The notes under the pieces: generated by a model | What the model was told of the DNA's origin: nothing | What the model saw: the letters and a program-made list of their open reading frames with translations, nothing else | The model's database searches: none | NCBI RefSeq assembly: GCF_000186885.1 | Contig: NC_014972.1 | Location: 1,830,001-1,862,000, forward strand | Reading direction: 5' to 3' | DNA length: 32,000 bases | Source of the DNA: Desulfobulbus propionicus DSM 2032 | Lineage (GTDB): Bacteria; Desulfobacterota; Desulfobulbia; Desulfobulbales; Desulfobulbaceae | Made by a program: the position numbers and the translations under genes | Shown here: in pieces, positions 189-16,011 of the stretch | Layout: every line of letters begins with the position of its first letter | Numbering within the stretch: position 1 is the stretch's first letter

Positions 189-232
189 TGCTCCTCTTGC
201 TTCCGTGTTGGTTGTTCGGCGTATCTGCGTTA

Positions 233-619: not shown

Positions 620-664
620 GGGTATCCTCCTTGTTCTGTGTTCGATTTTTGAATGATCGTCGAA

Positions 665-1111: not shown

Positions 1112-1185
1112 CTTGTCTCCTCCTTTTCGTGAGTGTGTAGGGTATGTTCCGATCATGCATGACCCCGTCTTTGTGTTGTAGTTGA

Positions 1186-1213
1186 ACTATAAGTATGACA
1201 AATAGCCAGTCAA
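1186..1213 (-). promoter_or_regulatory. Candidate sigma70-type promoter for the Hsp20 operon (TTGACT-N16-TATAGT on the minus strand)
   Basis: The reverse complement of 1208-1213 is TTGACT and of 1186-1191 is TATAGT, with a 16-nt spacer. It sits in an AT-rich island about 70 nt upstream of the first hsp20 ATG. Confidence 0.4.
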
Positions 1214-1307
1214 TGCGACTTATGAATATTTTGGTTGCATTACTTATTGTGAAAATTTATCAATAGTAATGAAATGGTATGAATGAGCAGTAAGAAGGAG
1301 GTGTGCG

Positions 1308-1907
1308 ATGAGTGATGAACAGGATGGAAAAAAATACGGGGAGGGGCTATTGGCTGGTTTGTCCGCCGATACCCTGCGGGGCCGGCAATCGGTACGGGCG
1401 ACTTTTCGTCTGCCGTCGCAGGTGATAGCGTTACTCAGCCTAGCCGCCAACCAGTTGGGATTGAAGCAGAAATCGCTCTTCGATCAGCTAGTGGAAGACC
1501 GGGAGGTGCTGAAACAGCTCGCCCAGGCCGCCGGTTCGTATTCGCCAAGCGGTGAACAGCGGCAGCAAAAGACCTTTGTGGTCAGCCGCAACTCGCTGCT
1601 GTCGCTCGAATATGTAGCCAAGGCCTGCGGTTTGCCGCGTGATCTCCTGGTGGAGTTGTCCATTCGACGACTGTTGCCGGTGATGAGTTCGGAGCAGGAA
1701 AAACAGAAGAAAAGGCGGGCGGTCCTGGCCGAGATGGAATCGTTTCTGCAACAAGGTCAGGCTTTGTGGGCGAGCGCCGAGCAATTGCTCGGCGAAACTG
1801 ATGACACCACCAGGCAGCTCGCCATGGTGTTGCTGCACTGTGAACGGGCGGTCAACGATCTGCGCCAGGCTATTGACCAGGGAAAAGAAATCGAGGGATA
1901 TCAATAA
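1308..1907 (+). CDS. Hypothetical protein (199 aa) with two ribbon-helix-helix-like repeats and a helical C-terminal region
   Basis: A strong SD (AAGGAGG) lies 7 nt before the ATG. Two beta-strand-plus-helix segments recur: ATFRLPSQVIALLSLAANQLGLKQKSLFDQLVE and KTFVVSRNSLLSLEYVAKACGLPRDLLVELSIRRLL. I did not recognise a family. Confidence 0.6.
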   Translation: MSDEQDGKKYGEGLLAGLSADTLRGRQSVRATFRLPSQVIALLSLAANQLGLKQKSLFDQLVEDREVLKQLAQAAGSYSPSGEQRQQKTFVVSRNSLLSLEYVAKACGLPRDLLVELSIRRLLPVMSSEQEKQKKRRAVLAEMESFLQQGQALWASAEQLLGETDDTTRQLAMVLLHCERAVNDLRQAIDQGKEIEGYQ

Positions 1908-2036
1908 GCATCGCTGTGCATTGACCACATGGTGGTGGTCTTGGGTCACAATTCAACATCTTGGAAATATGAGAAATATTTATAATATATTGTTTTTACA
2001 ATAAAATATCCGCATAAATTTTTTTGATTAAATAGT

Positions 2037-2065
2037 TTGACAGTAACGTCTTATTTTGTCATAAT
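2037..2065 (+). promoter_or_regulatory. Candidate sigma70 promoter of the rex-hydCBA operon (TTGACA-N17-CATAAT)
   Basis: TTGACA is at 2037-2042 and CATAAT at 2060-2065, with an exact 17-nt spacer. It lies in a 250-bp AT-rich island upstream of rex. Confidence 0.55.
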
Positions 2066-2069
2066 AAAT

Positions 2070-2089
2070 ATCGAGAATTAATTCTCGAT
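2070..2089. promoter_or_regulatory. Perfect 20-bp palindrome ATCGAGAATTAATTCTCGAT, a candidate Rex-type operator overlapping the predicted transcription start
   Basis: The sequence is an exact reverse complement of itself. It begins 5 nt after the -10 hexamer. The inner 18 bp (TCGAGAA-N4-TTCTCGA) share the GAA-N4-TTC core and spacing of the Rex consensus TTGTGAA-N4-TTCACAA (consensus recalled from memory). Confidence 0.5.
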
Positions 2090-2163
2090 AGCAATCACCC
2101 CGACAAAGCGGGGCGCAGGGTAATCGGTATTTCATTCTTCATTCATGCTCAAGGGTGCGGGAT

Positions 2164-2856
2164 ATGGAAAACAAGACAGTACGGCCGATCCGGAAGAGTG
2201 AAAAGGGCGTGCCGGAGCCGACACTGCGTCGTTTGCCGTTGTATTACCGCCTCTTGAAACAGTTGCGCGAGGTCGGTCGCTCCGGCGTCTCCTGCACCAT
2301 GATCGGCACCGAACTCAAGCTCGATGCCACTCAGGTTCGCAAAGACATCGAGATGACCGGCACCGTGGGACGGCCGAAGGTGGGATACGATGTCAACGAG
2401 CTAATCTGCGCCATCGAAAAATTTCTCGGTTGGGACATCTCCACCGAGGCCTTTCTCGTCGGTGCGGGCAGCCTGGGGGAAGCGCTGATGGGCTACCCCG
2501 GCTTTGCCGAGTGCGGTCTTGATATCGTGGCCGCCTTCGATGTCGACCCGAACAAATGCCATCGGGTCATTCACGGCAAGCATGTCCGCCACATCAGCAA
2601 GCTGCCCGGCCTGATGCGCCGAATGCGCGTTCGTTTCGGGATTATCACTGTTCCCGCGTCCGAGGCCCAGCAGGCGGCCGACTTGCTGGTCGAGGGCGGG
2701 GTATTGGCCATTTGGAATTTTGCCCCGGCAAAGATACACGTGCCGGACCGTGTCATTGTGACCAACGAAGATCTGTACTGCTCGCTGGCCGTCCTGTCGC
2801 AAAAAATGACCAGGAAGCTGGCCGAGTCCCGTTCAAAAGGAGTATCCAAATCATGA
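2164..2856 (+). CDS. rex: Redox-sensing transcriptional repressor Rex
   Basis: The N-terminal winged-helix signature is present (PEPTLRRLPLYYRLLKQL...VSCTMIGTELKLDATQVRKDI). A Rossmann GxGxxG follows (LVGAGSLGEAL). I prefer the ATG at 2164 over the track GTG at 2155. The stop overlaps the next start (ATGA). Confidence 0.92.
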   Translation: MENKTVRPIRKSEKGVPEPTLRRLPLYYRLLKQLREVGRSGVSCTMIGTELKLDATQVRKDIEMTGTVGRPKVGYDVNELICAIEKFLGWDISTEAFLVGAGSLGEALMGYPGFAECGLDIVAAFDVDPNKCHRVIHGKHVRHISKLPGLMRRMRVRFGIITVPASEAQQAADLLVEGGVLAIWNFAPAKIHVPDRVIVTNEDLYCSLAVLSQKMTRKLAESRSKGVSKS

Positions 2857-3368
2857 CCACACTTGAGCAGGATGCCGTATCGCAAACGCCTGCGCGCCGT
2901 TACGAAAAAGTTTGCACGATCCTTGAACAGCACGACAACCAACCACAACGACTGATTCCTATCCTTCAAGCCGTCCAGGAGGAGTACCGCTATCTGCCCG
3001 AAGACGTGCTCACTTTTGTCGCCGCCGGCCTTGATGTGCCGCCGGCGCGTGTCTACGGCGTGGCTACCTTCTATTCCCACTTCGCCCTCGAACCCAAGGG
3101 CAAGTACTGCATCCGCTTGTGCGACGGCACCGCCTGCCATGTCAAACGTTCCATTCCCATCCTGGAGGCCATCTACAAGCGGCTGGGCCTGTCCAGCAAG
3201 CGCACCACCACCGAGGACATGCTGTTCACCGTGGAGACCGTCGCTTGTCTCGGCGCCTGCGGCCTGGCGCCGGTGGTGGTGATCAACGAGGAGGTGCATG
3301 GCCAGATGACGCCTGAAGCAGCCATTCAACTCATCAACGAGATCGAGGAGCGGGAGAAGGTATCATGA
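2853..3368 (+). CDS. hydC: [FeFe]-hydrogenase small electron-transfer subunit, NuoE-like thioredoxin-like [2Fe-2S] protein (HydC/HndA type)
   Basis: The start is Met100 of track ORF 2556..3368 (MTTLEQD...). The NuoE pattern is present: CDGTAC...CLGAC (Cx4C...Cx3C) and VATFYSHF. ATGA overlaps occur at both ends. Confidence 0.9.
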   Translation: MTTLEQDAVSQTPARRYEKVCTILEQHDNQPQRLIPILQAVQEEYRYLPEDVLTFVAAGLDVPPARVYGVATFYSHFALEPKGKYCIRLCDGTACHVKRSIPILEAIYKRLGLSSKRTTTEDMLFTVETVACLGACGLAPVVVINEEVHGQMTPEAAIQLINEIEEREKVS

Positions 3369-5266
3369 ACACCATGCAACAAACAGTGAATAATGCCGAC
3401 CCGTTGATGGGTGCCCAACGACGGGTGGTGATCTGCGCCGGCACCGGCTGCGTCGCCAACGGCGCCATGAAGGTCCATGCCGCCTTTCAGCAGCGGATGG
3501 CCGAGAAGAATCTACCCTTTGTCCTCGAACTCCGGGAAGAAAACGACAATAGCGGCAAGACCGCCTTCACCCGCAGCGGCTGTCAGGGGTTCTGTCAGAT
3601 GGGGCCGCTGGTGACGGTCCTGCCGGAGAACATCCTCTACACCCAGGTCAAACCGGCCGATATCGACGAAATCATCGAGACCAGCCTGATCGGCGGCGGG
3701 GTCGTCGAGCGGCTGTTGTACAGCGAGCCAGGCAACGGGCACGCGTGCAAGGGCACCGACGACATCCCCTTCTACACCCGCCAGCAGCGGTTCGTGCTCG
3801 GCGACTGCGGCACCATCGATCCGGAAAGCATTGACGAATACCTGCGCAACGGCGGCTATGAGGCGGCCAAGAAGGCTTTTCTGCAGATGTCGCCCGAGGC
3901 GATCTGCACCGAGATCTCCGAATCCGGCCTGCGCGGCCGAGGCGGCGGCGGCTTTCCCACCGGCCGCAAGTGGGAGGCGGCCCGCCGTCAGGCAGGAGAC
4001 AAGAAGTATGTCATCTGTAACGCCGACGAGGGCGACCCCGGTGCGTTCATGAACCGCAGCGTCATGGAGGGCAACCCCCACAGCGTCATCGAAGGTCTGA
4101 TGATCGCCGCCCGGGCCATCGGCGCCGACGAGACCCTGGTCTATGTGCGCGCCGAGTATCCGTTGGCGGTCGAACGCATGCGGCGTGCGGTCAAGGATGC
4201 CACCGCCCGTGGCATTCTCGGCGAAAACGTCTTTGGTTCCGGACTCAACATCAGCTGCGAGATCATGGAAGGGGCGGGTGCCTTTGTCTGCGGCGAGGAG
4301 ACGGCGATGATCGCCTCCATCGAGGGGCAGCGCGGCATGCCCCGGCCCAAGCCGCCGTTTCCGGCGCAAAGCGGTTTGTGGGGCAAGCCGACCATCATCA
4401 ACAACGTCGAGACCCTCGCCCACGCGGTACGCATTGTCCGCGAAGGGGCCATCCGTTTCCGCCAACTGGGCACCCCTGGTTCCCCGGGCACCAAGACTTT
4501 TGCCCTCACCGGCCATGTGGCCAACACCGGTCTGATCGAGGTGCCGTTTGGCACCACCCTGCGGGAGATCGTCCACAACATCGGCGGCGGCGTCACCAAG
4601 AGTGACGGCAGCATCGATCCTACCGGGTTCAAGGCGGTGCAGATCGGCGGGCCTTCGGGCGGCTGTCTGACCCAGGAGCACCTCGATCTGCCCATGGATT
4701 TCGACTCCTTGCGCACCGTGGGCGCCATGGTGGGCAGCGGCGGCCTGGTGGCCATGAACCAGGACACCTGCATGGTGTCGGTGGCCCGGTTCTTCATGGA
4801 GTTCACCCAGCGCGAGAGCTGCGGCAAGTGCGTGCTCTGCCGGGAGGGTACCCGCCAGATGCTGGCCCTGATGGACGACATCATCGAGGGGCGGGCCGAC
4901 GAGACCACCCTGCCGCTGCTCAGGGAACTGGCCGTGGCGGTGCAGAAGGGCTCGCTGTGCGGCCTGGGCAAGACCGCGCCCAATCCGGTGCTCTCCACCC
5001 TGCGTCATTTTCCGGAAGAGTACGAGGCTCATGTCCGCGACAAGGTCTGTCCGGCCGGTCAGTGCAAGGCCCTACTCAAGCCGTGGATCAATGCCGAGAA
5101 GTGCAAGGGCTGCGGCAAGTGCGCCAAGAAATGCCCGGTGGAGGCGATCAGCGGCGAACTCAAACAGCCGCATGTGATCGATCAGGACAAGTGTATCAAG
5201 TGCGGGGCCTGCCTGCAGTCCTGCAAATTCGGGGCAGTCGAGGGATTGCAAGGAGGTCAGGCATGA
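3365..5266 (+). CDS. hydB: [FeFe]-hydrogenase flavoprotein subunit, NuoF-like (HydB/HndC type)
   Basis: The N-terminal Trx-like domain has CAGTGC...CQGFC. The NuoF FMN/NADH region has [14 protein letters not shown] and a [11 protein letters not shown]-type segment. A [4Fe-4S] motif is [10 protein letters not shown]...C. The C-terminus has 2x CxxCxxCxxxCP ([23 protein letters not shown]). Confidence 0.95.
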
Positions 5267-7314
5267 TGAAGACGAAAACCGCCGCCCTCACCATTGACGG
5301 CCGCAAGGTGGCCATCGAGGGCGAGAAGAACCTGTTGGAGCTGGTGCGCAAGGCGGGCATCGACCTGCCCACCTTCTGTTATCACTCCGACCTGAGCGTT
5401 TACGGCGCCTGCCGCCTCTGTCTGGTCGACGTCGAGGGCCGCGGCATTCTCGGCGCCTGTTCGACCCCGCCGGAGCCGGGGTTGGTGGTGCGCACCAACA
5501 CCGAGGAGCTGCGCGAGATCCGCAAGATTTCAGTGGAACTGCTCCTGGCCAATCACGACCGGGAGTGCACCAGCTGCGTGCGCAGCGGCTCCTGTCAGTT
5601 GCAGGACATCGCCCGCCGGCTGGGGATCACCAAGATCCGCTACCGCTCCATCCACCAGCCCAAACCGGTGGATACCTCCAGTCCGTCGCTGATCCGTGAT
5701 CCCAACAAGTGCGTGCTCTGCGGCGACTGTGTCCGCTTCTGCGATGAGATTCAGAGTATCGGCGCCATCGATTTCGCTTTCCGGGGTCACGATGCCATGG
5801 TGCTGCCTGCCTTTGGCCATGATCTCGGCACCACCGAGTGCGTCAACTGCGGTCAGTGTGCCTCGGTCTGCCCCACCGGCGCCCTGGCACCGGCCTCGGA
5901 GATCGATGCGGTGTGGAAGGCGATCCACGATCCCAACACCGTGGTGGTGGCTCAGATCGCCCCGGCGGTGCGGGTGGCCATCGGCGAGCAGTTCGGTCTG
6001 GAGTACGGGCTCAACACCACCGGCCAGGTGGTGGCGGCCATGAAGCGGATGGGGTTTAACATCGTCTACGACACCAGCTTCACCGCCGACCTCACCGTGG
6101 TCGAGGAGGCGGGTGAGTTCATGGCCCGCAAGACCAACGGCGAGCGATTGCCGCTGTTCACCAGCTGTTGCCCGGGCTGGGTCAAGTTTGCCGAGCAGTA
6201 TTTCCCGCAGCTCTTGGGTAACCTCAGCTCCTGCCGTTCGCCGCAGCAGATGATGGGGTCCATGGTCAAGCACACCCTGCCGGCGCAGCTCGGTCGGGAG
6301 CGCAAGGATGTGGTCATGGTGTCGATCATGCCCTGCACGGCCAAGAAGTTCGAGGCCAAACGGCCGGAGTTCAAGACCGGTGGCTCGCCGGACGTGGATT
6401 TCGTCCTCACCACCCAGGAACTGGCGAGGATGATCGAGGAGTCGGGTCTGAGCCTCAACAAGCTCAATCCGGCCAGCTTCGACATGCCCATGGGTTTCAA
6501 GACCGGTGCCGGGGTCATCTTCGGCAACTCCGGCGGCGTCACCGAGGCAGTGCTGCGTTATGCGGTGGGCAAGATCACCGGCCAGAACCCGGTCGATCCT
6601 GAGTTCGAGGAGATCCGCGGCGAAGAGTCGCTACGCGTCATCCGCACCGAGGTCGGCGGCCTGGAGCTGAAACTGGCCATTGTCCACGGCCTGGGCAAGG
6701 CCCGCGAGGTGATGCACCAGATTCTCGACGGCTCGCTGATCGTCGATCTGGTCGAGGTCATGGCCTGTCCGGGCGGCTGCATCGGCGGCGCCGGCCAGCC
6801 GGTGGGCCGCGACATCGCCGAACGGCGGCGGGCGCGTACCGAATGGCTGTACAACACCGACCGGTTGCTCGATCTGCACTGCTCGCAGGAGAACCACTTC
6901 GTGAACGAGTGCTATCAGAAGTACTTGGGCGAACCGGGCAGTCGCGAGTCCCATCGTCTGCTCCATACCCACTACCACCACCGCCGCCGCACCGGCAGCG
7001 AGGAACTGGCCCTGGCCAAGGCCAAGGAGAGCGGCGACGGCGTGCTGACCGTGCGGGTCTGCGCCGGCACCGGCTGCTTTCTGCGCAACTCCCAGGCCAT
7101 TATCCAGGGCCTGATGAAACATGTCGAGGCCAACGACCTCGACGACAAGGTCCAGGTGCAGGCTTCCTTCTGCTTCGAGATGTGCGGCGAGGGACCCAAT
7201 GTGGCGGTGGGCGACACCATCATCAACCACGCCACCCTGGATGTGGTGATCAACGCCGTCCATGCCGAACTGGCACAGATGGCCTCGGGCCAGATGCAGG
7301 CCGACGCCTGCTGA
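5263..7314 (+). CDS. hydA: [FeFe]-hydrogenase catalytic subunit with N-terminal [2Fe-2S]/[4Fe-4S] ferredoxin domains and a C-terminal thioredoxin-like [2Fe-2S] domain
   Basis: The start is Met146 of track ORF 4828..7314 ([13 protein letters not shown]), overlapping the hydB stop. All three canonical H-cluster motifs are present: TSCCPGW, MPCTAKKFEA and EVMACPGGCIGGAGQP. The C-terminal tail has CAGTGC...CFEMC. Confidence 0.95.
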   Translation: MMKTKTAALTIDGRKVAIEGEKNLLELVRKAGIDLPTFCYHSDLSVYGACRLCLVDVEGRGILGACSTPPEPGLVVRTNTEELREIRKISVELLLANHDRECTSCVRSGSCQLQDIARRLGITKIRYRSIHQPKPVDTSSPSLIRDPNKCVLCGDCVRFCDEIQSIGAIDFAFRGHDAMVLPAFGHDLGTTECVNCGQCASVCPTGALAPASEIDAVWKAIHDPNTVVVAQIAPAVRVAIGEQFGLEYGLNTTGQVVAAMKRMGFNIVYDTSFTADLTVVEEAGEFMARKTNGERLPLFTSCCPGWVKFAEQYFPQLLGNLSSCRSPQQMMGSMVKHTLPAQLGRERKDVVMVSIMPCTAKKFEAKRPEFKTGGSPDVDFVLTTQELARMIEESGLSLNKLNPASFDMPMGFKTGAGVIFGNSGGVTEAVLRYAVGKITGQNPVDPEFEEIRGEESLRVIRTEVGGLELKLAIVHGLGKAREVMHQILDGSLIVDLVEVMACPGGCIGGAGQPVGRDIAERRRARTEWLYNTDRLLDLHCSQENHFVNECYQKYLGEPGSRESHRLLHTHYHHRRRTGSEELALAKAKESGDGVLTVRVCAGTGCFLRNSQAIIQGLMKHVEANDLDDKVQVQASFCFEMCGEGPNVAVGDTIINHATLDVVINAVHAELAQMASGQMQADAC

Positions 7315-7331
7315 GCACGGCATAAACGAGC

Positions 7332-7367
7332 GCTCCCGCCGGGATCTGTGCGGTATCCGGCGGGAGC
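7332..7367 (+). terminator. GC-rich hairpin 18 nt after the hydA stop, a possible partial terminator
   Basis: GCTCCCGCCGG (7332-7342) pairs with CCGGCGGGAGC (7357-7367). It is followed by CTGTTCATTGATTCATGTTT, which is T-containing but not a clean U-run. Confidence 0.4.
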
Positions 7368-7389
7368 TGTTCATTGATTCATGTTTCGC

Positions 7390-7438
7390 TCCTCCGTGGC
7401 GTGGCCGCTTTCGCGACAGGCGGCCGTGCCGCGGAGGA
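7390..7438 (+). other. Long imperfect hairpin (19 paired positions including 3 G-U pairs), foldable only as a + strand RNA
   Basis: TCCTCCGTGGCGTGGCCGC (7390-7408) pairs with GCGGCCGTGCCGCGGAGGA (7420-7438). The three non-Watson-Crick positions are G-U on the + transcript but would be C-A mismatches on the opposite strand. Confidence 0.4.
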
Positions 7439-7516
7439 ATTGCGCAGAAAAGGCATCCGGTCACGATGCTCAATAAATTCGACAACGCTCCCAGACTACT
7501 CCAAGATGCGCTGCGT

Positions 7517-7546
7517 GGACTCCGGTATGGGCTGATACCGGAGTCC
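7517..7546 (+). other. Perfect 12-bp stem with a 6-nt loop in the hydA/aspA-like intergenic region
   Basis: GGACTCCGGTAT gggctg ATACCGGAGTCC is an exact inverted repeat. No U-run follows it. Confidence 0.4.
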
Positions 7547-7670
7547 TGTCGATTCGCTCCCCGTCCTTCTGATTTTCCCTTGGCCGCCCCCTTAGTCCGT
7601 CTTACTATTGGCCCATGATTGCCTCCATTTTCGTTCTTCACCTCTCTTTTCCCTTCCGAGAGTAACCGGT

Positions 7671-9089
7671 ATGGCCACGACCCGACCCGAAACCGATTCC
7701 CTCGGCACGCGCGAGGTCCCTGCCGCACCCCTGTGGGGAATTCATACCCTCAGGGCCCTGGAGAATTTCCCGCTCACCGGCCGACCGATCCACCCCCTGT
7801 TGGTCCGGTCCCTCGGCCTGGTCAAGCTGGCCGCGGCCCAGACCAATCACCGGCTGGGCGCCTGGAGCGACGATGACGACAAAGCCTCTGCCATCCTGGC
7901 CGCCTGCACCGAGATGGCCGAGGGCGGCTTAGGATCGGCCATCGTGGTCGATGCCCTCCAGGGAGGGGCCGGCACCAGCGCCAACATGAATGTCAACGAG
8001 GTGCTGGCCAACCGGGCCCTGGAACTGCTGGGCTGTGGTCGGGGTGAGTACACCCGCGTCAATCCCCTCGATGACCTCAACCTCCACCAGTCGACCAACG
8101 ATGTCTTTCCCACCGCCCTGAAAATCGCGGCCTTGCTCTCGCTCGACCGGCTGGAACAGCGGGTGGTGGCCCTGCAGGAGGCGCTACAGGAGCAGGAGCA
8201 GCGGTGGGCCCATGTGGTCAAGGTGGGCCGCACCGAAATGCAGGACGCGGTGCTGATCACCGTGGGTCGCGGCTTCGGCGCCTATGCCGAGGCCATCAAT
8301 CGCGACCGCTGGCGCATCTCCAAATGCCGGGAGCGGCTGCGGGTGGTCAACCTCGGCGGTACCGCCGTGGGCACCGGTCTGGCCGCGCCGCGCCGCTATA
8401 TCTTCGAGGTTACCGAGGCCCTGCGCCAGCTCACCGGGCTCAGTCTGGCCCGGGCCGAGAACCTGGTCGAGGCCACCCAGAATGTGGATGTCTTTGTCGA
8501 GGTCTCGGGTATCCTCAAGGCCCATGCCGCCAGCCTGTTGAAAATCTGCACCGATCTGCGTCTGCTCAGTTCCGGCCCGGACGCCGGTCTGGCCGAGATC
8601 CGCTTGCCTGCGCGTCAGGCCGGTTCCTCGATCATGCCGGGCAAGGTCAACCCGGTGATCCCCGAGGCGGTCAGTCAGGCGGCCATGCTGGTGATCGGCA
8701 ACGACACGACCCTGACCCTGGCCTGCGCCTCGGGCAGCCTGGAACTCAATCCCTTTTTGCCGCTGGTGGCCCTGACCCTGCTCGACAACCTCGACCTGCT
8801 CGCCCAGGCTGACGACATCCTCTGTCGCCACTGCATAGTCGGCATCAAGGTCGACGAGGCGCGCTGCGCCCGTCAGGTGGAAAACTCCACCGCCTCGGCC
8901 ACGGCCCTGCTGCCGGCCATCGGCCATGAACGGGCCGCGGAGATCGCGCGCAAGGCGGCGCACACCGGCACCAGTGTCCGTGAGCTGGCCCGCGAGGCCG
9001 GGATCAGCGACGTCCAGTTCGATCAACTCACCAGCGCCACCGCGGTCTGCCGCTTAGGCTTTGTCCCTCCCTCCACCGAAAAACGATAA
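7671..9089 (+). CDS. Aspartate ammonia-lyase / class II fumarase superfamily protein (aspartase-like), embedded in the hydrogenase maturation operon
   Basis: The start is Met22 of track ORF 7608..9089 (MATTRPETDSLGTREVPAAPLWGIHTLRALENF), which parallels the E. coli AspA N-terminus as I recall it. Conserved segments are GGAGTSANMNVNEVLAN, HQSTNDVFPTA, and the fumarate-lyase signature/SS loop GSSIMPGKVNPV. Confidence 0.88.
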   Translation: MATTRPETDSLGTREVPAAPLWGIHTLRALENFPLTGRPIHPLLVRSLGLVKLAAAQTNHRLGAWSDDDDKASAILAACTEMAEGGLGSAIVVDALQGGAGTSANMNVNEVLANRALELLGCGRGEYTRVNPLDDLNLHQSTNDVFPTALKIAALLSLDRLEQRVVALQEALQEQEQRWAHVVKVGRTEMQDAVLITVGRGFGAYAEAINRDRWRISKCRERLRVVNLGGTAVGTGLAAPRRYIFEVTEALRQLTGLSLARAENLVEATQNVDVFVEVSGILKAHAASLLKICTDLRLLSSGPDAGLAEIRLPARQAGSSIMPGKVNPVIPEAVSQAAMLVIGNDTTLTLACASGSLELNPFLPLVALTLLDNLDLLAQADDILCRHCIVGIKVDEARCARQVENSTASATALLPAIGHERAAEIARKAAHTGTSVRELAREAGISDVQFDQLTSATAVCRLGFVPPSTEKR

Positions 9090-9093
9090 CATC

Positions 9094-10344
9094 ATGTCGC
9101 AATCCGCACCCAAGGGCCTCCGCCTCCATATCGGCCTCTTTGGCCGCCGCAATGTCGGCAAGTCGAGTCTGCTCAACGCCATTACCCGCCAGCAGGTGGC
9201 CATCGTCTCCAACGTGGCCGGTACCACCACTGATCCGGTGGAAAAGCCGATGGAGCTGCTGCCGCTCGGGCCGGTGCTGTTCATCGATACCGCCGGCGTG
9301 GACGATGTCGGCGCGCTGGGCGAGATGCGCATCGCCCGCACCCGCGCGGTGTTCGACCGCACCGACCTGGGCATCCTCGTCGCGGCCGGCGGCGAGTGGG
9401 GCTCATTTGAAACCGAGTTGCTCGCCGCCCTGACCGCGCGCCAGGTCCCGGTGCTGGTGGTGATGAACAAGCTCGATCAGGGCCGCGCCAGCGACACCCT
9501 GACGGCCGAGCTGGCTGCCAAAAAGATCCCGCTGGTGCATACCGCCGCCCTCAACGGCGAGGGCATCGCCGAATTGAAACAGGCCATTGTCGCCCAGACC
9601 CCGGCCGATTTCCTCACCAGTCCGGCCATCATCTCCGATCTGGTCGGCCCCGGGGAGTTGGCGGTACTGGTGGTACCGATCGACAAGGAAGCGCCCAAGG
9701 GACGGCTGATCCTGCCCCAGGTACAGACCATCCGTGACCTGCTCGACGGCGATGCCATGAGCCTGGTGGTCAAGGAACGCGAACTGCGTCATGCCCTGGA
9801 CCAGCTCACATCGCCCCCCAAGTTGGTGGTGACCGACTCGCAGGCCTTTCTCAAGGTGGCCGCCGACGTGCCGCCCGAGGTCAAGCTGACCAGCTTCTCC
9901 ATCCTTTTTTCCCGCTGCAAGGGCGATCTGCTCACCCAGGTGGAAGGGGCCCTGGCCATTGACCGGTTGCAGCCCGGCGACCGGGTGCTGATGGCCGAGG
10001 CCTGCGCCCATCATCCCATCGGCGAGGATATCGGCCGGGTCAAGATTCCCCGTTGGCTGACCCAGTATGTCGGCGGCCAACTCGCGTTCACCCATGTCCA
10101 GGGCCATGATTTCCCGCCCGATCTGCACGAATACCAGTTGGTGATCCAGTGCGGCTCCTGCATGCTCAACCGTCGCGAGGTGCTCAGCCGCATCCTTCGC
10201 TGCCGCGAGGCCGGCGTGCCGATCACCAACTACGGTTTGGCGATTTCCTACAGCCTGGGCATCTTCACCCGAGCCCTGAGCCCCTTTCCCGCGGCCCTGG
10301 AACTCCTGCACAGTGCGGATCAGGGACGGTGCGAAGGGCGATGA
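9094..10344 (+). CDS. hydF: [FeFe]-hydrogenase maturation GTPase HydF
   Basis: The start is Met12 of the track ORF. GTPase motifs are GRRNVGKSS (G1), DTAG (G3) and NKLD (G4). The C-terminal cluster-binding region is CAH-x45-QCGSC. Confidence 0.88.
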   Translation: MSQSAPKGLRLHIGLFGRRNVGKSSLLNAITRQQVAIVSNVAGTTTDPVEKPMELLPLGPVLFIDTAGVDDVGALGEMRIARTRAVFDRTDLGILVAAGGEWGSFETELLAALTARQVPVLVVMNKLDQGRASDTLTAELAAKKIPLVHTAALNGEGIAELKQAIVAQTPADFLTSPAIISDLVGPGELAVLVVPIDKEAPKGRLILPQVQTIRDLLDGDAMSLVVKERELRHALDQLTSPPKLVVTDSQAFLKVAADVPPEVKLTSFSILFSRCKGDLLTQVEGALAIDRLQPGDRVLMAEACAHHPIGEDIGRVKIPRWLTQYVGGQLAFTHVQGHDFPPDLHEYQLVIQCGSCMLNRREVLSRILRCREAGVPITNYGLAISYSLGIFTRALSPFPAALELLHSADQGRCEGR

Positions 10345-11660
10345 CCATGGATCGCAAAGAAATTCTTCATTGGTTGCGCTGCGACGACCCGAAGGAACTG
10401 GAGCAGCTGTGGCGCCTGGCCGACCGGGCCCGGCAACAGCACGTGGGCGAGGCCGTGCACCTGCGCGGCCTGGTCGAGATCTCCAACTACTGCGCCCGTT
10501 CCTGCCACTATTGCGGGTTGCGCGCCCCCAACCGTCAGGTCAGCCGCTACCGCTTGAGCGCCGAGGAGATCCTCGACTGCGCCGATCAGGCGGTCCGGCT
10601 CGGGTATGGCACCCTGGTGCTGCAGTCGGGCGAGGACGACCGCATCGAGGCCGAGTGGCTGGCCAGCCTGCTGCGGCACATCAAGGCCACCACGCCGCTG
10701 GCCCTGACGCTGAGCCTGGGCGAGCGGAGCGAGGACGACCTGCGCATCTGGCGGGAGGCCGGGGCTGATCGCTACCTGCTGCGCTTTGAAACCTCGGACC
10801 GCGCCCTCTACCGGGCCATCCACCCGGACCGGGGCGCCCGGGTGTCGGATCGGCTGGCCCTCCTCCGCCAGTTGAAGAGCCTGGGCTATGAGACCGGCAG
10901 CGGCGTCATGGTGGGGATTCCAGGGCAGAGTTATGCAATCCTGGCCGACGATATCCTCTTGTTTCGCGAGCTCGATCTCGACATGATCGGCATCGGCCCC
11001 TTTATCGCCCATCCGGATACACCCCTGGGGCAGGCCGCCTCGCCCCTGCCCGGTGAGACGCAGGTGCCGCCCTCCATCGGCATGACCTGCAAGGCCGTGG
11101 CCCTGGCCCGGATCCTGCGGCCGGACGCCAACATTCCGGCCACCACCGCGGTGGCGGTCATGGATGCCTGGCAGGGGAGGGAACTGGCCCTGCGCTGCGG
11201 GGCCAACGTGATCATGCCCAACCTGACGCCGGCCCGGTTTCGCGAACACTACACCATCTATCCGGGCAAGGCGGACCGGATCGAGGCGGCCGAGCAGAGC
11301 GATCAACAGATTCGCAGCCAGATCAAGGCCATGGGCCGTGGCATCGGTTCGGGTCAGGGCGGACGGAAAAGTGGAACCCAAACGGAACCGGCCGCGCCCG
11401 CCACCCTGCGCATCGCCGTGTGCATGGGCAGCTCCTGTTTCTCCCGGGGCAACAACAGCCAGGCGATCGACACCCTGCGCCACTGTGTCGAGGATGCCGG
11501 GTTGGTGCCGGACATCTCCGGCCATCTGTGCGAAAACCTCTGCACCCAGGGGCCGAACATCACCATCGGCGAGACGATCTACTCCAACGTGCAGCCGTCC
11601 TGTTTCCCCGAACTGCTCAAACACCACCTCGCCAGCACCAAGGAGGGACGCGATGGATAG
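10341..11660 (+). CDS. hydE: [FeFe]-hydrogenase maturase HydE (radical SAM) fused to a C-terminal thioredoxin-like [2Fe-2S] ferredoxin domain
   Basis: The start is Met65 of track ORF 10149..11660 (MTMDRKEILHWL), with an ATGA overlap onto the hydF stop. The radical-SAM motif is ISNYCARSCHYCGLR. After a Gly/Pro-rich linker (GIGSGQGGRKSGTQTEPAAPA), an extra ~85 aa carries CMGSSC...CENLC (Cx4C...Cx3C). Confidence 0.88.
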   Translation: MTMDRKEILHWLRCDDPKELEQLWRLADRARQQHVGEAVHLRGLVEISNYCARSCHYCGLRAPNRQVSRYRLSAEEILDCADQAVRLGYGTLVLQSGEDDRIEAEWLASLLRHIKATTPLALTLSLGERSEDDLRIWREAGADRYLLRFETSDRALYRAIHPDRGARVSDRLALLRQLKSLGYETGSGVMVGIPGQSYAILADDILLFRELDLDMIGIGPFIAHPDTPLGQAASPLPGETQVPPSIGMTCKAVALARILRPDANIPATTAVAVMDAWQGRELALRCGANVIMPNLTPARFREHYTIYPGKADRIEAAEQSDQQIRSQIKAMGRGIGSGQGGRKSGTQTEPAAPATLRIAVCMGSSCFSRGNNSQAIDTLRHCVEDAGLVPDISGHLCENLCTQGPNITIGETIYSNVQPSCFPELLKHHLASTKEGRDG

Positions 11661-13392
11661 ACGCTCGCCCATCTATACCGAGAAACACGAGTGCCAGGAC
11701 TGCTATAAGTGCGTTCGCCAATGCCCGGTCAAGGCCATCCGGGTGCAGGATGCCTATGCCACCATTGTCGACGAGATGTGCGTGTACTGCGGCATTTGTG
11801 TCTCCATCTGCCCCAACACCGCCAAGCATGTGCGCAACGATTTGCCCCGGGCCCGCCAACTGGTCAAGCTGCCGCCCCGGGTGCTGGTCTCGCTCGCCCC
11901 CTCGTGGATCACCGAATTCCCCAACATCGAGGCCGGTCAGCTGATCGCCGCCCTCAAACGGCTCGGCTTTGCCGCTGTCTCCGAGACCGCACTCGGCGCC
12001 CAGCAGGTCAGCGCCCATGTGGCCGAGACGCTGCGCGAACAGCCGGGCCAGATCCTGCTCAGCTCGGCCTGCCCGACCGTGGTGGCCTATATTCAGAAGC
12101 ACCGGCCGCAGCTGGCCGGGGCCGTCACCGCGCTCCTCTCGCCCCTGCTGGCCCACTGCCGCATGCTCAAGCGCCACTATGGCGAAGAGAGCGCCATTGT
12201 TTTCATCGGCCCCTGCATCGCCAAGAAACTTGAGGCCGACGAACACCCGGACCTGCTCGATATCGCCCTGACCTTCGAGGATTTGCGCATCTGGATGGCG
12301 GCGGAGCGGATCGATCCCCGCGCCCTGACCCCGGCGACCGACGACCGGTTCGAGCCCCAGGCCGCCGAGGAGGGTGTGCTCTATCCGGTGGATGGCGGCA
12401 TGATCGCCGGCATCCGCGCCCACTGCAGCGTTGATGACGGTGCGTTCATGAGTTTTTCCGGCTTGGCGGCGGTGGAGAACGCCCTCGACGGGCTGGAGGA
12501 TCTGGACCCGATGCAGGGGTTGTTTCTGGAGTTGTTGGCCTGCGAGGGCGGCTGCATCAACGGCCCCAAGGTCACCCGGCCGGGCAGCACCGTGACCAAG
12601 CGGCAGCGGGTGCTGGCCCATGCCCGCTTCCCGGAGACGCAACCCGTGCCCCGACCGCCGGAGCTCGATATCCGCCGGTCTATCATGCCCCGGCCGCTCA
12701 GCCAGCCCACGCCCACCGAGACCCGCATCTCGGAAGTCCTGCGATCCATCGGCAAGCGCTCGATCGAGGACGAACTCAACTGCGGCGGTTGCGGCTACGA
12801 CTCCTGCCGCGAATTCGGCAAGGCCCTGATCGCCCAGCGGGCCGAGCGGGCCATGTGCGTCTCCTGGATGCGGCAGCTGGCCTTCAAGAAGGCCAACGTG
12901 CTCATCCACAAGATGCCCTCGGCCGTGGTGATCGTCGATGGCGACCTGCGGGTGCTGGAATGCAACGCCGCCTTTGTGGCCATCATCAACCACCTGCGTC
13001 CGGTGTCGCTGCCGGCGGAACTGGAGGGAACGTCGGTGGCCGAGCTGCTGCCCTTCCATAACCTCTTTGCCAGCGTGCTCAAGAACGACATGGATATCCT
13101 CGACCGGGATATCCGTTTCCTCGATACCATCCTCCACCTGTCCATCTTCACCATCGACCCGCACGCAGTGGTCGGCGCCATCCTCCAGGACATCACCCGA
13201 CCGGCGGTACAGAAGGAGCAGGTGATCCGGCGGGCCCGCGAGGTCATCCAGAAAAACCTGGCCACGGTGCAGAAGATCGCCTACCTGCTGGGCGAAAACG
13301 CGGCCGAATCCGAGGTCACCCTCAACAGCATCATCGAGTCGTTTTCGCCGGCCAAGATCGAAGGCGACGAGGGAGGCAGCCTTGGCGACTGA
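11653..13392 (+). CDS. hydS: Sensory-type [FeFe]-hydrogenase homologue (HydS-like): 2x[4Fe-4S] ferredoxin, degenerate H-domain, Cx2Cx4Cx16C motif and PAS domain
   Basis: The start is Met106 of track ORF 11338..13392 (MDRRSPIYTEKHECQDCYKCVRQCP), with an 8-nt overlap onto hydE. The H-cluster motifs are altered: SSACPTV (vs TSCCPxW), GPCIAKKLEA (vs MPCxxKxxE) and ELLACEGGCINGPKV (vs ExMxCxxGCxxGGGQP). CGGCGYDSC-x16-C lies at 12781-12858. A PAS-like tail follows (VVIVDGDLRVLECNAAF...ILQDITR). Confidence 0.85.
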   Translation: MDRRSPIYTEKHECQDCYKCVRQCPVKAIRVQDAYATIVDEMCVYCGICVSICPNTAKHVRNDLPRARQLVKLPPRVLVSLAPSWITEFPNIEAGQLIAALKRLGFAAVSETALGAQQVSAHVAETLREQPGQILLSSACPTVVAYIQKHRPQLAGAVTALLSPLLAHCRMLKRHYGEESAIVFIGPCIAKKLEADEHPDLLDIALTFEDLRIWMAAERIDPRALTPATDDRFEPQAAEEGVLYPVDGGMIAGIRAHCSVDDGAFMSFSGLAAVENALDGLEDLDPMQGLFLELLACEGGCINGPKVTRPGSTVTKRQRVLAHARFPETQPVPRPPELDIRRSIMPRPLSQPTPTETRISEVLRSIGKRSIEDELNCGGCGYDSCREFGKALIAQRAERAMCVSWMRQLAFKKANVLIHKMPSAVVIVDGDLRVLECNAAFVAIINHLRPVSLPAELEGTSVAELLPFHNLFASVLKNDMDILDRDIRFLDTILHLSIFTIDPHAVVGAILQDITRPAVQKEQVIRRAREVIQKNLATVQKIAYLLGENAAESEVTLNSIIESFSPAKIEGDEGGSLGD

Positions 13393-14563
13393 GACGGCCT
13401 TCATCGACGTCGACCATGCCCTGCGCTGCAAGCATCGCCAGTCGATCTGCGGTGATGTCTTTCTCAGTCATCGGATCAAGGAAGAGGGGCGGATCCTGGC
13501 GGTGCTTTCCGACGGCCTCGGTTCCGGGGTCAAGGCCTCGGTGTTGGCCAACCTCACCGCCGCCATGGCGCTCAAGTTCGCCTCCACCTGCACCGATCCC
13601 CGGGCGTGGGCGCGGTCGATCATGGATACCCTGCCGATCTGCGAGGTGCGCAAGATCAGTTACTCCACCTTCACCCTGATCGATCTCGACGAGAGCGGCG
13701 CCCTGCGCTTCATCGAACACGGCAACCCGCCGCTGGTGCTGCTGCGCGGCACGAGCGAGGTGGAGCTGCACCGGTCGCTGATCACCCTTGATCGGTGGAA
13801 GGATCGCCTGATCTATCACGGCCGGCTGCAACTGGCCATCGGCGACCGATTGCTCTGTTTTTCCGACGGCGTCACCCAATCGGGCATGGGACAACGGACC
13901 ATGCCGCTCGGCTGGACCCGGGAGGAGGCGGTGGCCTGCGCCCAGGAGCTGATCCGTGCCGATGCGGATATCTCCTCGCGGCGGCTGACCGCGGCGCTGA
14001 TGGAGCGGGCCCTGACCAACGACAGCGGCTGCGCCCGCGACGACACCAGCTGCGCGGTGATCCATTTCCGGGTGCCACGGCAGCTGTTGATCATGACCGG
14101 GCCGCCCTTTGCGCCGCAACGCGATTTCGAACTGGCACGGGCCGCCTCGACCTTTCCCGGCAAAAAGATCATCTGCGGCGGCACCACCGCGACCATCATC
14201 GGCCGCATTCTCCGCCGGCCGATCAGCGTCGATCTCACCCAGGCCGATACCGGCATGCCGCCGCCGGCGCGGATGGAGGGCATTGACCTGATCACCGAGG
14301 GGGCCTTGACCCTGGCCCACGTGGCCCAACTGCTGGCCACGGGCGTCACCGTCGAACGGCTGCCGAACAATCCGGCCGGGGACATCGTCCGTCTCATGTT
14401 CGGCAGCGATCTCATTCACTTTATCGTCGGCACCCGGATCAACGAGGCCCATCAGGACCCCAACACCCCGCAGGAACTCGATCTGCGCCGCAACATCGTC
14501 CGCCGCATCGTCTCGCTTCTTGAGGAAAAGTACCTCAACACCACGTCGGTCCGCTTTCTCTGA
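13382..14563 (+). CDS. PP2C/SpoIIE-family serine phosphatase with an uncharacterised ~160-aa C-terminal domain
   Basis: A TTG start at 13382 has a GGGAGG SD 5 nt upstream and overlaps hydS by 11 nt. There is no in-frame ATG before the catalytic domain. PP2C metal-site pattern: CGDVF, LSDGLGSGVKAS, FSDGVTQSG, ARDDTSCAV. I could not assign the C-terminal part (GKKIICGGTTATIIGR...). Confidence 0.8.
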   Translation: MATETAFIDVDHALRCKHRQSICGDVFLSHRIKEEGRILAVLSDGLGSGVKASVLANLTAAMALKFASTCTDPRAWARSIMDTLPICEVRKISYSTFTLIDLDESGALRFIEHGNPPLVLLRGTSEVELHRSLITLDRWKDRLIYHGRLQLAIGDRLLCFSDGVTQSGMGQRTMPLGWTREEAVACAQELIRADADISSRRLTAALMERALTNDSGCARDDTSCAVIHFRVPRQLLIMTGPPFAPQRDFELARAASTFPGKKIICGGTTATIIGRILRRPISVDLTQADTGMPPPARMEGIDLITEGALTLAHVAQLLATGVTVERLPNNPAGDIVRLMFGSDLIHFIVGTRINEAHQDPNTPQELDLRRNIVRRIVSLLEEKYLNTTSVRFL

Positions 14564-14586
14564 CCCCTTTGGGGGAGGAGAGCGGC

Positions 14587-15513
14587 TCAGCGGCGCACTT
14601 CGACGGGATTGGAGAGAACCAGGTCGAGCATCTGGGGAAAGGGTTTGTTGCAGAAGGTCAGCTGGAGGGTGTATCGACCGCCGGACAGATCCGGCGGCAG
14701 GGTGGCGGTGAGGAAGCGGGAGGCCTTGCGGTTCTTGATCGGTACACAGTCGGTGCCGTTACTTTGGTCGAGGCTGACGGTGGCCACCGGCGGATGCGGA
14801 CTGCCGGCCCGGAAGATCTGAACCGTCGGCCGCACTCCGAAATCAAAGGTGCTGACACTGGACAACGACAGTCGCACCTTTTCTCCCGGCCTGTAACGGT
14901 CAAAATCGGTGGCCAGGTGGAGGTGGCGGTTGTAATCCGGCTCCGGGGAACGGGTACCCGAGGTCGCCGCCTCCCAAAAGCGCGGCCGGCCGGCGTCGAA
15001 ATGGACGGTCTTGCCGCCGTAATGACCGATGCCGCCGCAGTTTTTTTGCCGGATCGTTTCCCACAGCTGTTTCCCGTCCACCCCCTCCAGCCAGAAATCG
15101 AGTGCCAGACCGTCCATGTGGGTGCTGGTCCGGGCGGCATTGTTGCCCTGGGCGCGGATTTGGTCGTTGTATTCGGGGCTGCGGTAGGCGGATTCGATGT
15201 TGATCGTCTTGCCCGGCGCCATGCGCTCGGCAAAGTAGCTGAGCATGAACAGCATTCGCGGCGAGATGTGTTCGCCCTTCTCCTCGGTGGGGAAGCCGAA
15301 CACCCAATCCACGGTGGCGAAATCACGTTCGTTGAACGATCCGTCCGGGTTGAGCAGGTGCACCCTGGCCTCGCGGTCGTTGCGCAGGTTCTTGAGGTGC
15401 ATGGAACCGCTGCCCATGAGGAAGAAGCGTTCCGAGGGCTGGGTGGCAGTGCTGTCTGTCGCCTGAAACAACAGAAAAACAGTGTAAAGAAAAATAAAGA
15501 TAATGTGTTGCAT
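14587..15513 (-). CDS. Secreted DUF882 / peptidase M15A-type (YcbK/MepK-like) metallopeptidase with a C-terminal extension
   Basis: I prefer Met66 of track ORF 14587..15708 (MQHIIFIFLYTVFLLFQATDS), which is signal-peptide-like. Family pattern: INIESAYRSPEYN...STHMDGLALDF...GKTVHFD (His/Asp zinc ligands). Confidence 0.78.
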   Translation of the reverse strand: MQHIIFIFLYTVFLLFQATDSTATQPSERFFLMGSGSMHLKNLRNDREARVHLLNPDGSFNERDFATVDWVFGFPTEEKGEHISPRMLFMLSYFAERMAPGKTINIESAYRSPEYNDQIRAQGNNAARTSTHMDGLALDFWLEGVDGKQLWETIRQKNCGGIGHYGGKTVHFDAGRPRFWEAATSGTRSPEPDYNRHLHLATDFDRYRPGEKVRLSLSSVSTFDFGVRPTVQIFRAGSPHPPVATVSLDQSNGTDCVPIKNRKASRFLTATLPPDLSGGRYTLQLTFCNKPFPQMLDLVLSNPVEVRR

Positions 15514-15599
15514 GAGATTGGTCGGGCGTTGGTGCGGTGGCCGTGTTCGCTGGCGGGAAGAATCCGTTTGCCTGCTGGTCGATGGGTGCTGCCCCCTTG

Positions 15600-15893: not shown

Positions 15894-15935
15894 GCGCGTT
15901 CACCTCGCTGTGATGTCGATTGGGATGCGCCAACA

Positions 15936-15964
15936 ACTGTAGGAGAAGAAACGAAAAAAGGCAA
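15936..15964 (-). promoter_or_regulatory. Candidate sigma70 promoter (TTGCCT-N17-TACAGT on the minus strand) for the 97-aa ORF / peptidase pair
   Basis: The reverse complement of 15959-15964 is TTGCCT and of 15936-15941 is TACAGT, with a 17-nt spacer. Confidence 0.3.
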
Positions 15965-16011
15965 CCGGCGTTTACTCTTCCCCTCGATTCACCTGTTTTT
16001 CCCTGGCAAGA

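Follow-up and report, generated by a model that had tools for sequence, protein, structure and literature searches.

A 32-kb window of the Desulfobulbus propionicus DSM 2032 sequence (NC_014972.1), by which we mean the whole stretch of DNA that was analysed and within which all positions are counted, carries nine intact and co-directional open reading frames (ORFs) on the + strand (2164-14563). They encode the regulator Rex, the three subunits of an [FeFe]-hydrogenase (HydC, HydB, HydA), AspA, the maturases HydF and HydE, a putative H2-sensing hydrogenase (HydS), and a PP2C phosphatase (Table 1). These genes form a real cluster that is conserved in several phyla. They are probably organised in two blocks separated by a structured spacer: a rex-hydCBA operon, and a series comprising aspA, hydF, a hydE fused to a ferredoxin, hydS, and the PP2C gene. 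All the component families and their co-location are already known, including the presence of Rex, HydS, and the phosphatase near such hydrogenases. What is specific to this lineage is the fusion of hydE with the ferredoxin, the relocation of hydG, and the structured spacer. Two features are new. The first is a dedicated type of operator that occurs, across phyla, almost only upstream of the rex encoded in the cluster. The second is a conserved, unannotated alpha/beta domain at the C-terminus of the phosphatase.

To study the conservation of the cluster, we searched for related loci with HydS, keeping one genome per species, and compared the resulting 80 loci (referred to below by L numbers) with the nine proteins of the window by tblastn. 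The closest loci by HydS (79-87% identity) are from Desulfobulbus and include D. elongatus DSM 2908 (L004). The remaining ones (52-63% identity) are from Verrucomicrobiota, Planctomycetota, Acidobacteriota, Myxococcota, Nitrospirota, Fibrobacterota, Lentisphaerota, and Auribacterota; one of the Acidobacteriota is the cultured Telmatobacter bradus. The colinear order (rex)-hydC-hydB-hydA-...-hydF-hydE-hydS-PP2C was found in 43 of the 80 loci and recurs in Desulfobulbus and in the first five of the phyla just named, which is far beyond what chance would produce. The phosphatase gene lies directly 3' of hydS in 76 out of 76 loci, rex lies directly 5' of hydC in all 32 loci where the upstream sequence is covered, and aspA is present in 24 of the 43 colinear loci. 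The invariant core of the cluster thus consists of the ferredoxin, HydS, and the phosphatase with its C-terminal domain, together with a special rex before hydC wherever this could be checked. The G+C content is 0.63-0.67 in the cluster (3000-15000) and about 0.50-0.54 upstream of it (1-3000). This rise and the 52-63% identity of HydS to that of distant phyla, whose HydB is 64-79% identical, suggest that the cluster was probably spread laterally as a block.

A sequence-only reading of the window had given the order of the nine genes, their strand, their overlaps, and the gaps of 356 nt (hydA to aspA) and 4 nt (aspA to hydF), all of which we confirmed to the base. The junctions rex/hydC, hydC/hydB, and hydF/hydE overlap by 4 nt each (ATGA), hydB/hydA also overlap by 4 nt, hydE/hydS by 8 nt, and hydS/PP2C by 11 nt, with a TTG start for the phosphatase. 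Every gene identity is backed by both Pfam and NCBIfam. An independent gene caller yielded identical products for HydF (416 aa), HydE (439 aa), HydS (579 aa), and the phosphatase (393 aa, TTG start included) in four metagenome contigs with an identical HydS.

The spacer downstream of hydA and the operator upstream of rex

Across the nine Desulfobulbus-type sequences, the 356-nt spacer between hydA and aspA has been conserved; it is also strongly structured (z = -3.36, minimum free energy fold). Three hairpins stand out. The first one, GC-rich and terminator-like, is kept in most Desulfobulbus-type loci; its U-tract is weak and fails the T-run rule of the terminator scanner. The second has 20 bp and an invariant loop with a CGCGAC core (consensus yyCGCGACAG, CGCGACAG in the window). 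It shows compensatory changes at 9 of its 20 pairs; 93.9% of cells are paired, and G-U pairs are frequent on the + strand. This level of covariation was reached in 0 of 500 shuffles, and slid controls gave 2-3 pairs. The third is part of the minimum free energy fold and is kept in 7 of the 9 Desulfobulbus-type loci. At E <= 1, the spacer has no match in Rfam.

A covariance model of the 20-bp hairpin matches at that position only, in all nine Desulfobulbus-type loci (the window and L002-L009). We therefore rejected the idea that it is a dispersed repeat or an element of other phyla. It might serve in processing, in stability, or in the binding of a protein. A remnant of hydG in the gap was also considered and discarded, because tblastn with HydG matched only its paralogue hydE. 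The sequence-only reading had treated the nine genes as one array. Because the spacer holds conserved and covarying hairpins, one of them terminator-like, this no longer seems the best description, and two or more expression units, split at the spacer, are probable.

At the other end of the first block, the sigma-70-type promoter of rex matches the consensus at 11 of 12 positions and carries a TG extension; a consensus scan of 1800-16000 ranks it first among sites of its kind. Its -35 and -10 hexamers and their spacing are kept in 8 Desulfobulbus-type loci with divergent flanks. Just past the -10 hexamer lies a perfect palindrome, which is retained beside the promoter in all Desulfobulbus-type loci, again within divergent DNA. 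It is of the type ATCGAnA-N6-TnTCGAT, and other phyla show the same arrangement upstream of rex, with TCGATA half-sites. We searched 1.48 Mb of related loci for the pattern ATCGAnA-N6-TnTCGA[AT] with at most one mismatch. Of the 53 matches obtained, 42 are located upstream of rex at a distance of no more than about 100 nt, in at least six phyla and often in pairs offset by 14 bp. No match was found before hydG, aspA, hydF, or hydS in these loci.

The leader of rex contains a further conserved element, (T)AATC(G/A)(G/A)TA..., at 2123-2142, about 54 nt past the operator. Its equivalent in L004 and L005 fits the operator pattern with at most one mismatch, and it may be a weak second operator.

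The product of rex is a member of its family (NF003994, 288 bits, cut-off 130) with a winged-helix N-terminal domain and a Rossmann domain (PF06971 and PF02629). It aligns over its full length with the solved Rex structures 3wg9 and 3ikv and keeps the GxGxxG motif (GAGSLG). The Rex proteins of the cluster share substitutions beside the recognition helix (xTG for YFG) and in the wing (GRPKVGY-type) that are absent from canonical Rex, and the core of the recognition helix (QVRKD) is identical in both. By sequence, they appear to be a distinct, cluster-specific subfamily that has kept the NAD(H)-binding Rossmann fold. From this and from the distribution of the operator, we infer that the cluster Rex binds the palindrome and autoregulates rex-hydCBA. 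The earlier suggestion that Rex gates the front of the array is thus plausible, given a conserved operator right after the -10 hexamer.

The canonical Rex operator reportedly reads TTGTGAA-N4-TTCACAA. We tried it as the operator of the window, and it has no match there with up to three mismatches. Some phyla do have canonical boxes (TGTGAA-N4-TTCACA) upstream of hydC, hydS, or rex, at about positions 102 in L015, 148 in L026, 6743 in L044, 1528 in L041, and 4780 in L077. They stand in place of the ATCGA-type box in L015, L026, and L044. The mixture of boxes in L041 and L077 suggests that two distinct regulators can act on such clusters.

Products of the hydrogenase, maturation, and sensor genes

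The sequence of the three structural proteins supports a bifurcating-type enzyme (HydDB group A3, or Bfu type 1), with the three best solved-structure matches serving as a proxy for placement in that clade. HydC matches PF01257 (E = 4e-50), a thioredoxin-like [2Fe-2S] family. The Pfam domains of HydB are a NuoF core, an N-terminal thioredoxin-like [2Fe-2S] domain, and a C-terminal 2x[4Fe-4S] domain, and the protein aligns end to end with the bifurcating 7t2r_B (E = 1e-233), 8a6t_B, and 7p5h_B. Non-bifurcating HydB/NuoF homologues are without additional Fe-S clusters (Schut et al., PMC9304861). The HydB of the window has additional Fe-S domains that these homologues lack, a comparison made at the level of domains and not cysteine by cysteine.

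HydA has a large catalytic domain (Fe_hyd_lg_C, E = 7.6e-91; TIGR02512, 469 bits, cut-off 406) and a C-terminal thioredoxin-like [2Fe-2S] domain. Its nearest solved structures, ahead of monomeric enzymes, are 8a6t from Thermoanaerobacter kivui (E = 5e-169), 7p5h from Thermotoga maritima, and 7q4v from Acetobacterium woodii. The alignment with 7p5h_A covers residues 9-664, the C-terminal [2Fe-2S] domain included. The H-cluster motifs are canonical (TSCCPGW in L1, MPCTAKKFE in L2, and EVMACPGGC / EVMACPGGCIGG in L3). Against the NCBIfam model called 'A6 NADH-dependent', HydA scores 722 bits, slightly below the cut-off of 765. The NuoE-like hydC and NuoF-like hydB lie directly upstream of hydA, with 4-nt overlaps. 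A bifurcating-type trimer is what the sequence-only reading had named, and both the nearest solved structures, all of them bifurcating HydABC or NiFe-HydABCSL enzymes (8a6t, 7p5h, 7q4v, and 7t2r), and the extra Fe-S domains of HydB agree with it.

The maturation genes that follow the spacer are equally clear: AspA matches NF008909 (607 bits, cut-off 510) and has the GSSIMPGKVNP loop, HydF matches TIGR03918 (556 bits, cut-off 326), and HydE matches TIGR03956 over residues 3-338 (316 bits, cut-off 255). Pagnier et al. (2024, PMC11736057) described the linkage of aspA to hydF and a role of aspartate ammonia-lyase as the source of the ammonium (nitrogen) that goes into the dithiomethylamine ligand. 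The AspA of the window is likely the ammonium supplier for H-cluster ligand synthesis. The aspA-like gene singled out in the sequence-only reading is therefore present where it was placed, but it is not an oddity, its role as a maturation helper being already in print.

The same reading held that the array joins structural and maturation genes. This stands for the structural genes, HydE, and HydF, but not for a full maturation set, because hydG is absent from the window; HydG must be encoded elsewhere. In other phyla, HydG (TIGR03955, 514-535 bits) sits between hydA and aspA/hydF. In six Desulfobulbus relatives (L002-L004 and L006-L008), hydG lies about 4 kb downstream of the phosphatase gene, after a second hydrogenase module. 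At about 13,100-18,800 in these relatives, a second copy of the palindrome, whose core (GAGAATTAATTCTC) lies between the phosphatase gene and the second hydrogenase gene, is followed by the module, a group A HydA2 with HmcB-like Fe-S and HmcC-like membrane subunits, and then by hydG. The window has no such module: a minus-strand M15 peptidase gene follows 24 nt past the phosphatase stop (14564-14590). The replacement of the module by this gene indicates a rearrangement or a deletion. With hydE fused to a ferredoxin and hydG missing at the locus, automated pathway annotation would be misled.

The C-terminal 85 residues or so of HydE have no Pfam match. Their profile matches the C-terminal domain of the T. 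maritima HydA (E = 7e-13), HndA (2auv), HydC, and NuoE, which identifies them as a thioredoxin-like [2Fe-2S] ferredoxin domain. BLASTP found no match between this tail and that of the HydA of the window; the later comparison of the two profiles with hhalign gave 99.2%. In 76 of 78 loci, a ferredoxin module lies ahead of hydS. In L071 and L077 the module is the C-terminal domain of HydA, and both were excluded from the subsequent count (n = 74). Of these 74 loci, which do not include the window itself, 66 have the ferredoxin as a small gene of its own, and the other 8 have it fused to HydE. The stop of the ferredoxin overlaps the start of hydS by 4-14 nt in 57 of the 74. In the Fibrobacter loci and in Telmatobacter bradus, the ferredoxin, hydS, and PP2C genes occur as a triad with no maturase nearby.

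These counts do not support the earlier proposal that the sensor is translationally coupled to the maturases. Because the ferredoxin is elsewhere mostly a separate gene that overlaps hydS, the overlap of hydE and hydS in the window is the ancestral coupling of the ferredoxin with hydS, carried along by a lineage-specific fusion. By this comparison, the sensor is coupled to its own ferredoxin and not intrinsically to the maturases.

HydS consists of 2x[4Fe-4S], the H-domain (Fe_hyd_lg_C), a C-terminal four-Cys Fe-S motif (PF04060), and PAS, and it retains the four H-cluster cysteines and the accessory clusters. It scores far from group A (TIGR02512, 84 bits, cut-off 406) and B1 (TIGR04105, 188 bits, cut-off 450). 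Its best match to a solved structure reaches only E = 3e-19, and it is 29% identical to the HydA of the window. The motifs SSACP, GPC, and LLAC place Ala, Gly, and Leu at the positions of CpI C299, M353, and M497. Such a pattern of replacements has been described for TmHydS and group C, with frequencies for the group (PMC10055695). A four-Cys motif after the H-domain has also been described for group C, and PAS separates this group from group D (PMC13104023). The motif is found in the window (PF04060, E = 2e-8) and in 40 of 40 orthologues. PAS falls just below threshold in the window (22.5 bits for PAS_4, whose cut-off is 23.1, and E between 8e-4 and 2e-2 for four further PAS models). Among the same 40 orthologues (51-92% identity), it is detected by PAS_8 in 35 (best E = 1e-7), by PAS in 29, and by PAS_9 in 23. 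Overall, the second-sphere residues, the C-terminal Fe-S motif, and PAS support the assignment of HydS, already made in the sequence-only reading, as a putative sensory [FeFe]-hydrogenase of group C (M2f).

The catalytic domain of the phosphatase (PF07228, E = 3e-17) covers residues 35-229. Its metal-binding Asp motifs SDGLGSG, FSDGV, and RDDTS align with SDGMGNG, MSDGI, and EDDMT of SpoIIE. The C-terminal domain matches no Pfam family. Its predicted structure shows a weak similarity to the methylglyoxal synthase fold (template modelling score of about 0.4), so that its fold class is tentative. It has an invariant GGTT loop, which we take to resemble the phosphate-binding loop of methylglyoxal synthase, and a TRINEAHQDP motif. 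The domain may bind a phosphorylated ligand. An exhaustive profile search with the phosphatase family returned 1114 representatives. Of the 150 matches listed, those of full length share one architecture of about 390 aa, with the C-terminal domain at about 215-395. No STAS substrate or anti-sigma-type kinase of the kind that belongs to SpoIIE/RsbU-type partner-switching modules was found among the window ORFs scanned, and the only family that recurs downstream of the phosphatase is, in some loci, the second hydrogenase.

Expression in two blocks and its alternatives

In the organisation that we consider probable, the first block (2037-7314) would be an autoregulated rex-hydCBA operon, with a strong sigma-70 promoter and a palindromic operator directly after it. 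Rex would occupy the operator at a low NADH/NAD+ ratio and leave it as NADH rises. Its release would allow the synthesis of HydABC, which would couple NADH and ferredoxin to H2 by confurcation or bifurcation, and would dispose of or generate reducing equivalents via H2. The second block (7671-14563) would provide AspA, HydF, and HydE as part of the machinery that builds the H-cluster, and a conserved sensing triad whose members are the group C HydS, the [2Fe-2S] ferredoxin domain, and a phosphatase that carries an additional domain at its C-terminus. For its own H-cluster, HydS would depend on the maturases. Through the Fe-S/PAS region at its C-terminus, it may signal H2 to the phosphatase, and the latter would dephosphorylate a target that is not encoded in cis. 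The most likely role of the spacer is to reduce read-through or to process it, and the catalytic proteins would in this way be made at a different level from the maturation and sensor proteins.

Several observations weigh against this organisation and the mechanism that goes with it. The spacer has no sigma-70 promoter on the + strand in a consensus scan, which is insensitive, and no sigma-54 promoter, matches to the latter being at chance level across the window. Together with the poor U-run of the first hairpin, this makes a single long transcript possible. ORF scans and tblastn found no hydG anywhere in the 32 kb. The palindrome differs from the canonical Rex box, so its recognition by Rex is our reading of the comparison, and L041 and L077 carry both canonical and ATCGA-type boxes upstream of rex; in L077, the two types could have two different binders. 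No kinase, STAS-type substrate, or other partner is conserved beside the phosphatase in any related locus. Finally, H2 sensing by group C enzymes is still called 'putative' in the literature (PMC13104023, PMC10055695).

The strongest competitor is a single polycistronic unit read from the rex promoter, in which the spacer hairpins tune mRNA stability or attenuate transcription, and the control exerted by Rex, and through it by NADH, extends to the maturases and the sensor. We consider this possible, though clearly less probable than two blocks. The lack of a promoter-like site on the + strand of the spacer speaks for it, as do the tight packing of co-directional genes, the poor U-tract of the first hairpin, and the lack of a second operator before aspA. 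However, the promoter scan is insensitive, and the spacer is conserved and structured (z = -3.36), with a terminator-like hairpin at its very start. Moreover, the sensor block occurs without hydCBA in L043, L057, and the Fibrobacter loci, and can therefore be expressed alone.

The palindrome might be bound by another, unlinked factor, possibly a phosphoprotein controlled by HydS and the phosphatase, with Rex acting elsewhere or at a weaker site. We regard this as unlikely. The palindrome is not a canonical Rex box, the QVRKD core of the recognition helix is that of canonical Rex, and L077 and L041 have both types of box upstream of rex, all of which would fit a different binder. Yet the box (ATCGAGAA-N4-TTCTCGAT) differs from a Rex box in its outer bases but has the same geometry, its two half-sites forming a palindrome of 18-20 bp around a GAA/TAA-N4-TTC/TTA core. 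It accompanies the rex of the cluster in at least six phyla (42 of the 53 matches), and the Rex proteins concerned share helix and wing substitutions that canonical Rex does not have. The cluster has no conserved DNA-binding protein besides Rex.

HydS might be a slow catalytic hydrogenase with the ferredoxin as its partner, and the phosphatase might act post-translationally, e.g., on HydABC, and not on expression. In favour of this, HydS has all four H-cluster cysteines as well as the accessory clusters, and the ferredoxin, an electron-transfer partner, shows translational coupling to hydS in 57 of 74 loci. According to the literature, the activity of TmHydS can be measured in both directions, and sensing is there called 'putative'. 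We nevertheless give this alternative a rather small chance. The proton-relay Cys and both second-sphere Met are replaced, as in sensory enzymes of low activity. In 76 of 76 loci, HydS comes with PAS and with a phosphatase dedicated to it, which is a signalling architecture, and the genetics of Thermoanaerobacterium and the transcript data of R. albus point to regulation. Least probable of all is a 'selfish operon' of genes that share a dependence on the H-cluster and moved as a block with no regulatory logic, because, even if the identities among distant phyla suggest lateral transfer and the content varies (aspA in 24 of 43 loci, the position of hydG, the ferredoxin fused or separate), the pairings of rex with hydC, the ferredoxin with hydS, and hydS with PP2C are invariant, their stop/start overlaps are conserved, and a dedicated operator co-varies with the rex of the cluster.

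An extension of the sensing scheme is suggested by T. bradus DSM 23630. Its chromosome (L057, 8668-12897) carries rex, the ferredoxin, hydS, and PP2C as a stand-alone unit behind the same type of operator, with no hydABC or maturases within 10 kb. Speculatively, and against the odds as we see them, these four proteins might form a portable switch that integrates H2 pressure with NADH/NAD+, and perhaps with the redox state of the ferredoxin, its output being the neighbouring Rex at the ATCGAnA-N6-TnTCGAT operator. Such a switch would explain the stand-alone unit, the lack of a kinase or substrate in cis, and the tracking of rex by the operator across phyla.

Layout of the window and comparison with known systems

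Table 1. Genes, domains, and regulatory elements of the cluster (positions within the 32-kb window).
Feature	Positions	Strand	Description
Promoter	2037-2065	+	sigma-70-type, TTGACA-17-(TG)-CATAAT, 11/12 consensus positions, TG extension
Operator	2070-2089		ATCGAGAATTAATTCTCGAT, perfect 20-bp palindrome, starts 4 nt past the -10 hexamer
rex	2164-2856	+	230 aa
hydC	2853-3368	+	171 aa, NuoE-like [2Fe-2S] subunit
hydB	3365-5266	+	633 aa, NuoF-like FMN/NAD(H) subunit
hydA	5263-7314	+	683 aa, H-cluster subunit
First spacer hairpin	7328-7372	+	GC-rich, terminator-like, just past the hydA stop, weak U-tract (spacer fold)
Second spacer hairpin	7390-7438	+	20 bp, invariant loop with CGCGAC core
Third spacer hairpin	7517-7546	+	GGACTCCGGTAT-N6-ATACCGGAGTCC, in the minimum free energy fold
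aspA	7671-9089	+	472 aa, aspartate ammonia-lyase family
hydF	9094-10344	+	416 aa, maturation GTPase/scaffold
hydE (hydE-Fd)	10341-11660	+	439 aa, radical-SAM maturase with C-terminal ferredoxin (Fd) domain
HydE ferredoxin domain	about 11397-11660	+	about 85 residues, thioredoxin-like [2Fe-2S]
hydS	11653-13392	+	579 aa, group C-type putative H2-sensing [FeFe]-hydrogenase
PP2C phosphatase	13382-14563	+	393 aa, TTG start, SpoIIE-type
Phosphatase C-terminal domain	14054-14563	+	residues 225-393, predicted alpha/beta domain, structure-prediction confidence (pLDDT) 89.5

The neighbours of the cluster are unrelated to it: an Hsp20 gene upstream and the M15 peptidase and HrpA genes downstream, all on the minus strand. 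Elsewhere in the window, and with no evident link to the hydrogenase, are genes for the HrpA helicase (16012-19800, -), PriA (20787-23090, +), a PAS-HisKA-HATPase sensor kinase (23834-25828, +), and a YcaO-TPR protein (28351-30261, +). We found no tRNA in the window and no match to an Rfam family at gathering score over its whole length.

The literature shows no output of HydS and its phosphatase in any organism. The comparison of the 80 loci narrows the question of how anaerobes sense H2 with [FeFe]-type sensors down to a core of ferredoxin, HydS, and phosphatase, with an extra domain on the phosphatase, no kinase or substrate travelling along, and a specific operator at the promoter that would be regulated. 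Cultured carriers of the arrangement include D. elongatus DSM 2908 and T. bradus DSM 23630.

Among the known systems, T. maritima HydABC (7p5h) is like the one described here in being a NuoE/NuoF/HydA trimer with a C-terminal [2Fe-2S] domain on HydA and a Rex-type regulator nearby. TmHydS, like the HydS of the window, bears PAS and has Ala at the position of the proton-relay Cys; M497 is Ser in TmHydS and Leu here. The T. maritima locus appears to be arranged differently: in the window, rex opens the structural operon and is preceded by a non-canonical operator, and hydS is packed behind aspA-hydF-hydE, where it overlaps the ferredoxin domain.

Ruminococcus albus (Zheng 2014; Greening 2019, PMC6776011) also has a PAS-bearing putative H2 sensor of group C next to a PP2C-type phosphatase, and the two have been proposed to set hydrogenase expression according to H2 (PMC6776011). 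There, the sensor sits with a ferredoxin-only A1 hydrogenase (HydA2) and adhE, whereas in the window it sits with a bifurcating-type enzyme and maturases. A second [FeFe]-hydrogenase right after the phosphatase, as in R. albus, is found in relatives of the window within L002-L008 but not in the window itself.

The hfsABCD genes of Thermoanaerobacterium (PMC5707799, PMC11837493) encode, in this order and as here, a small protein, a HydS-like protein (HfsB), a PP2C-like protein (HfsC), and a ferredoxin-linked hydrogenase (HfsD). Their genetics revealed a regulatory phenotype that requires the downstream genes (PMC5707799, PMC11837493). However, HfsB (TamHydS) belongs to group D and has no PAS (PMC13104023), whereas the HydS of the window is of the group C type with PAS. 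HfsA was reported to be unlike known proteins except hydrogenase large subunits, and the small partner in the window is a thioredoxin-like [2Fe-2S] ferredoxin. Unlike the window, hfsABCD has no linkage to Rex or to maturases.

The maturation operons of Pagnier et al. 2024 (PMC11736057) have aspA directly upstream of hydF, as does the window with its 4-nt gap, but the window is without hydG and runs on into the sensor and phosphatase module. Finally, the [NiFe] system HoxBC-HoxJ-HoxA of Cupriavidus necator is similar only in the way it works: a hydrogenase of low activity senses H2, and a phosphorylation-dependent step controls the hydrogenase genes. There is no homology between the two. The metal site, the protein families, and the chemistry of signalling are unrelated, and a histidine kinase and a response regulator stand there where the window has a PP2C phosphatase.

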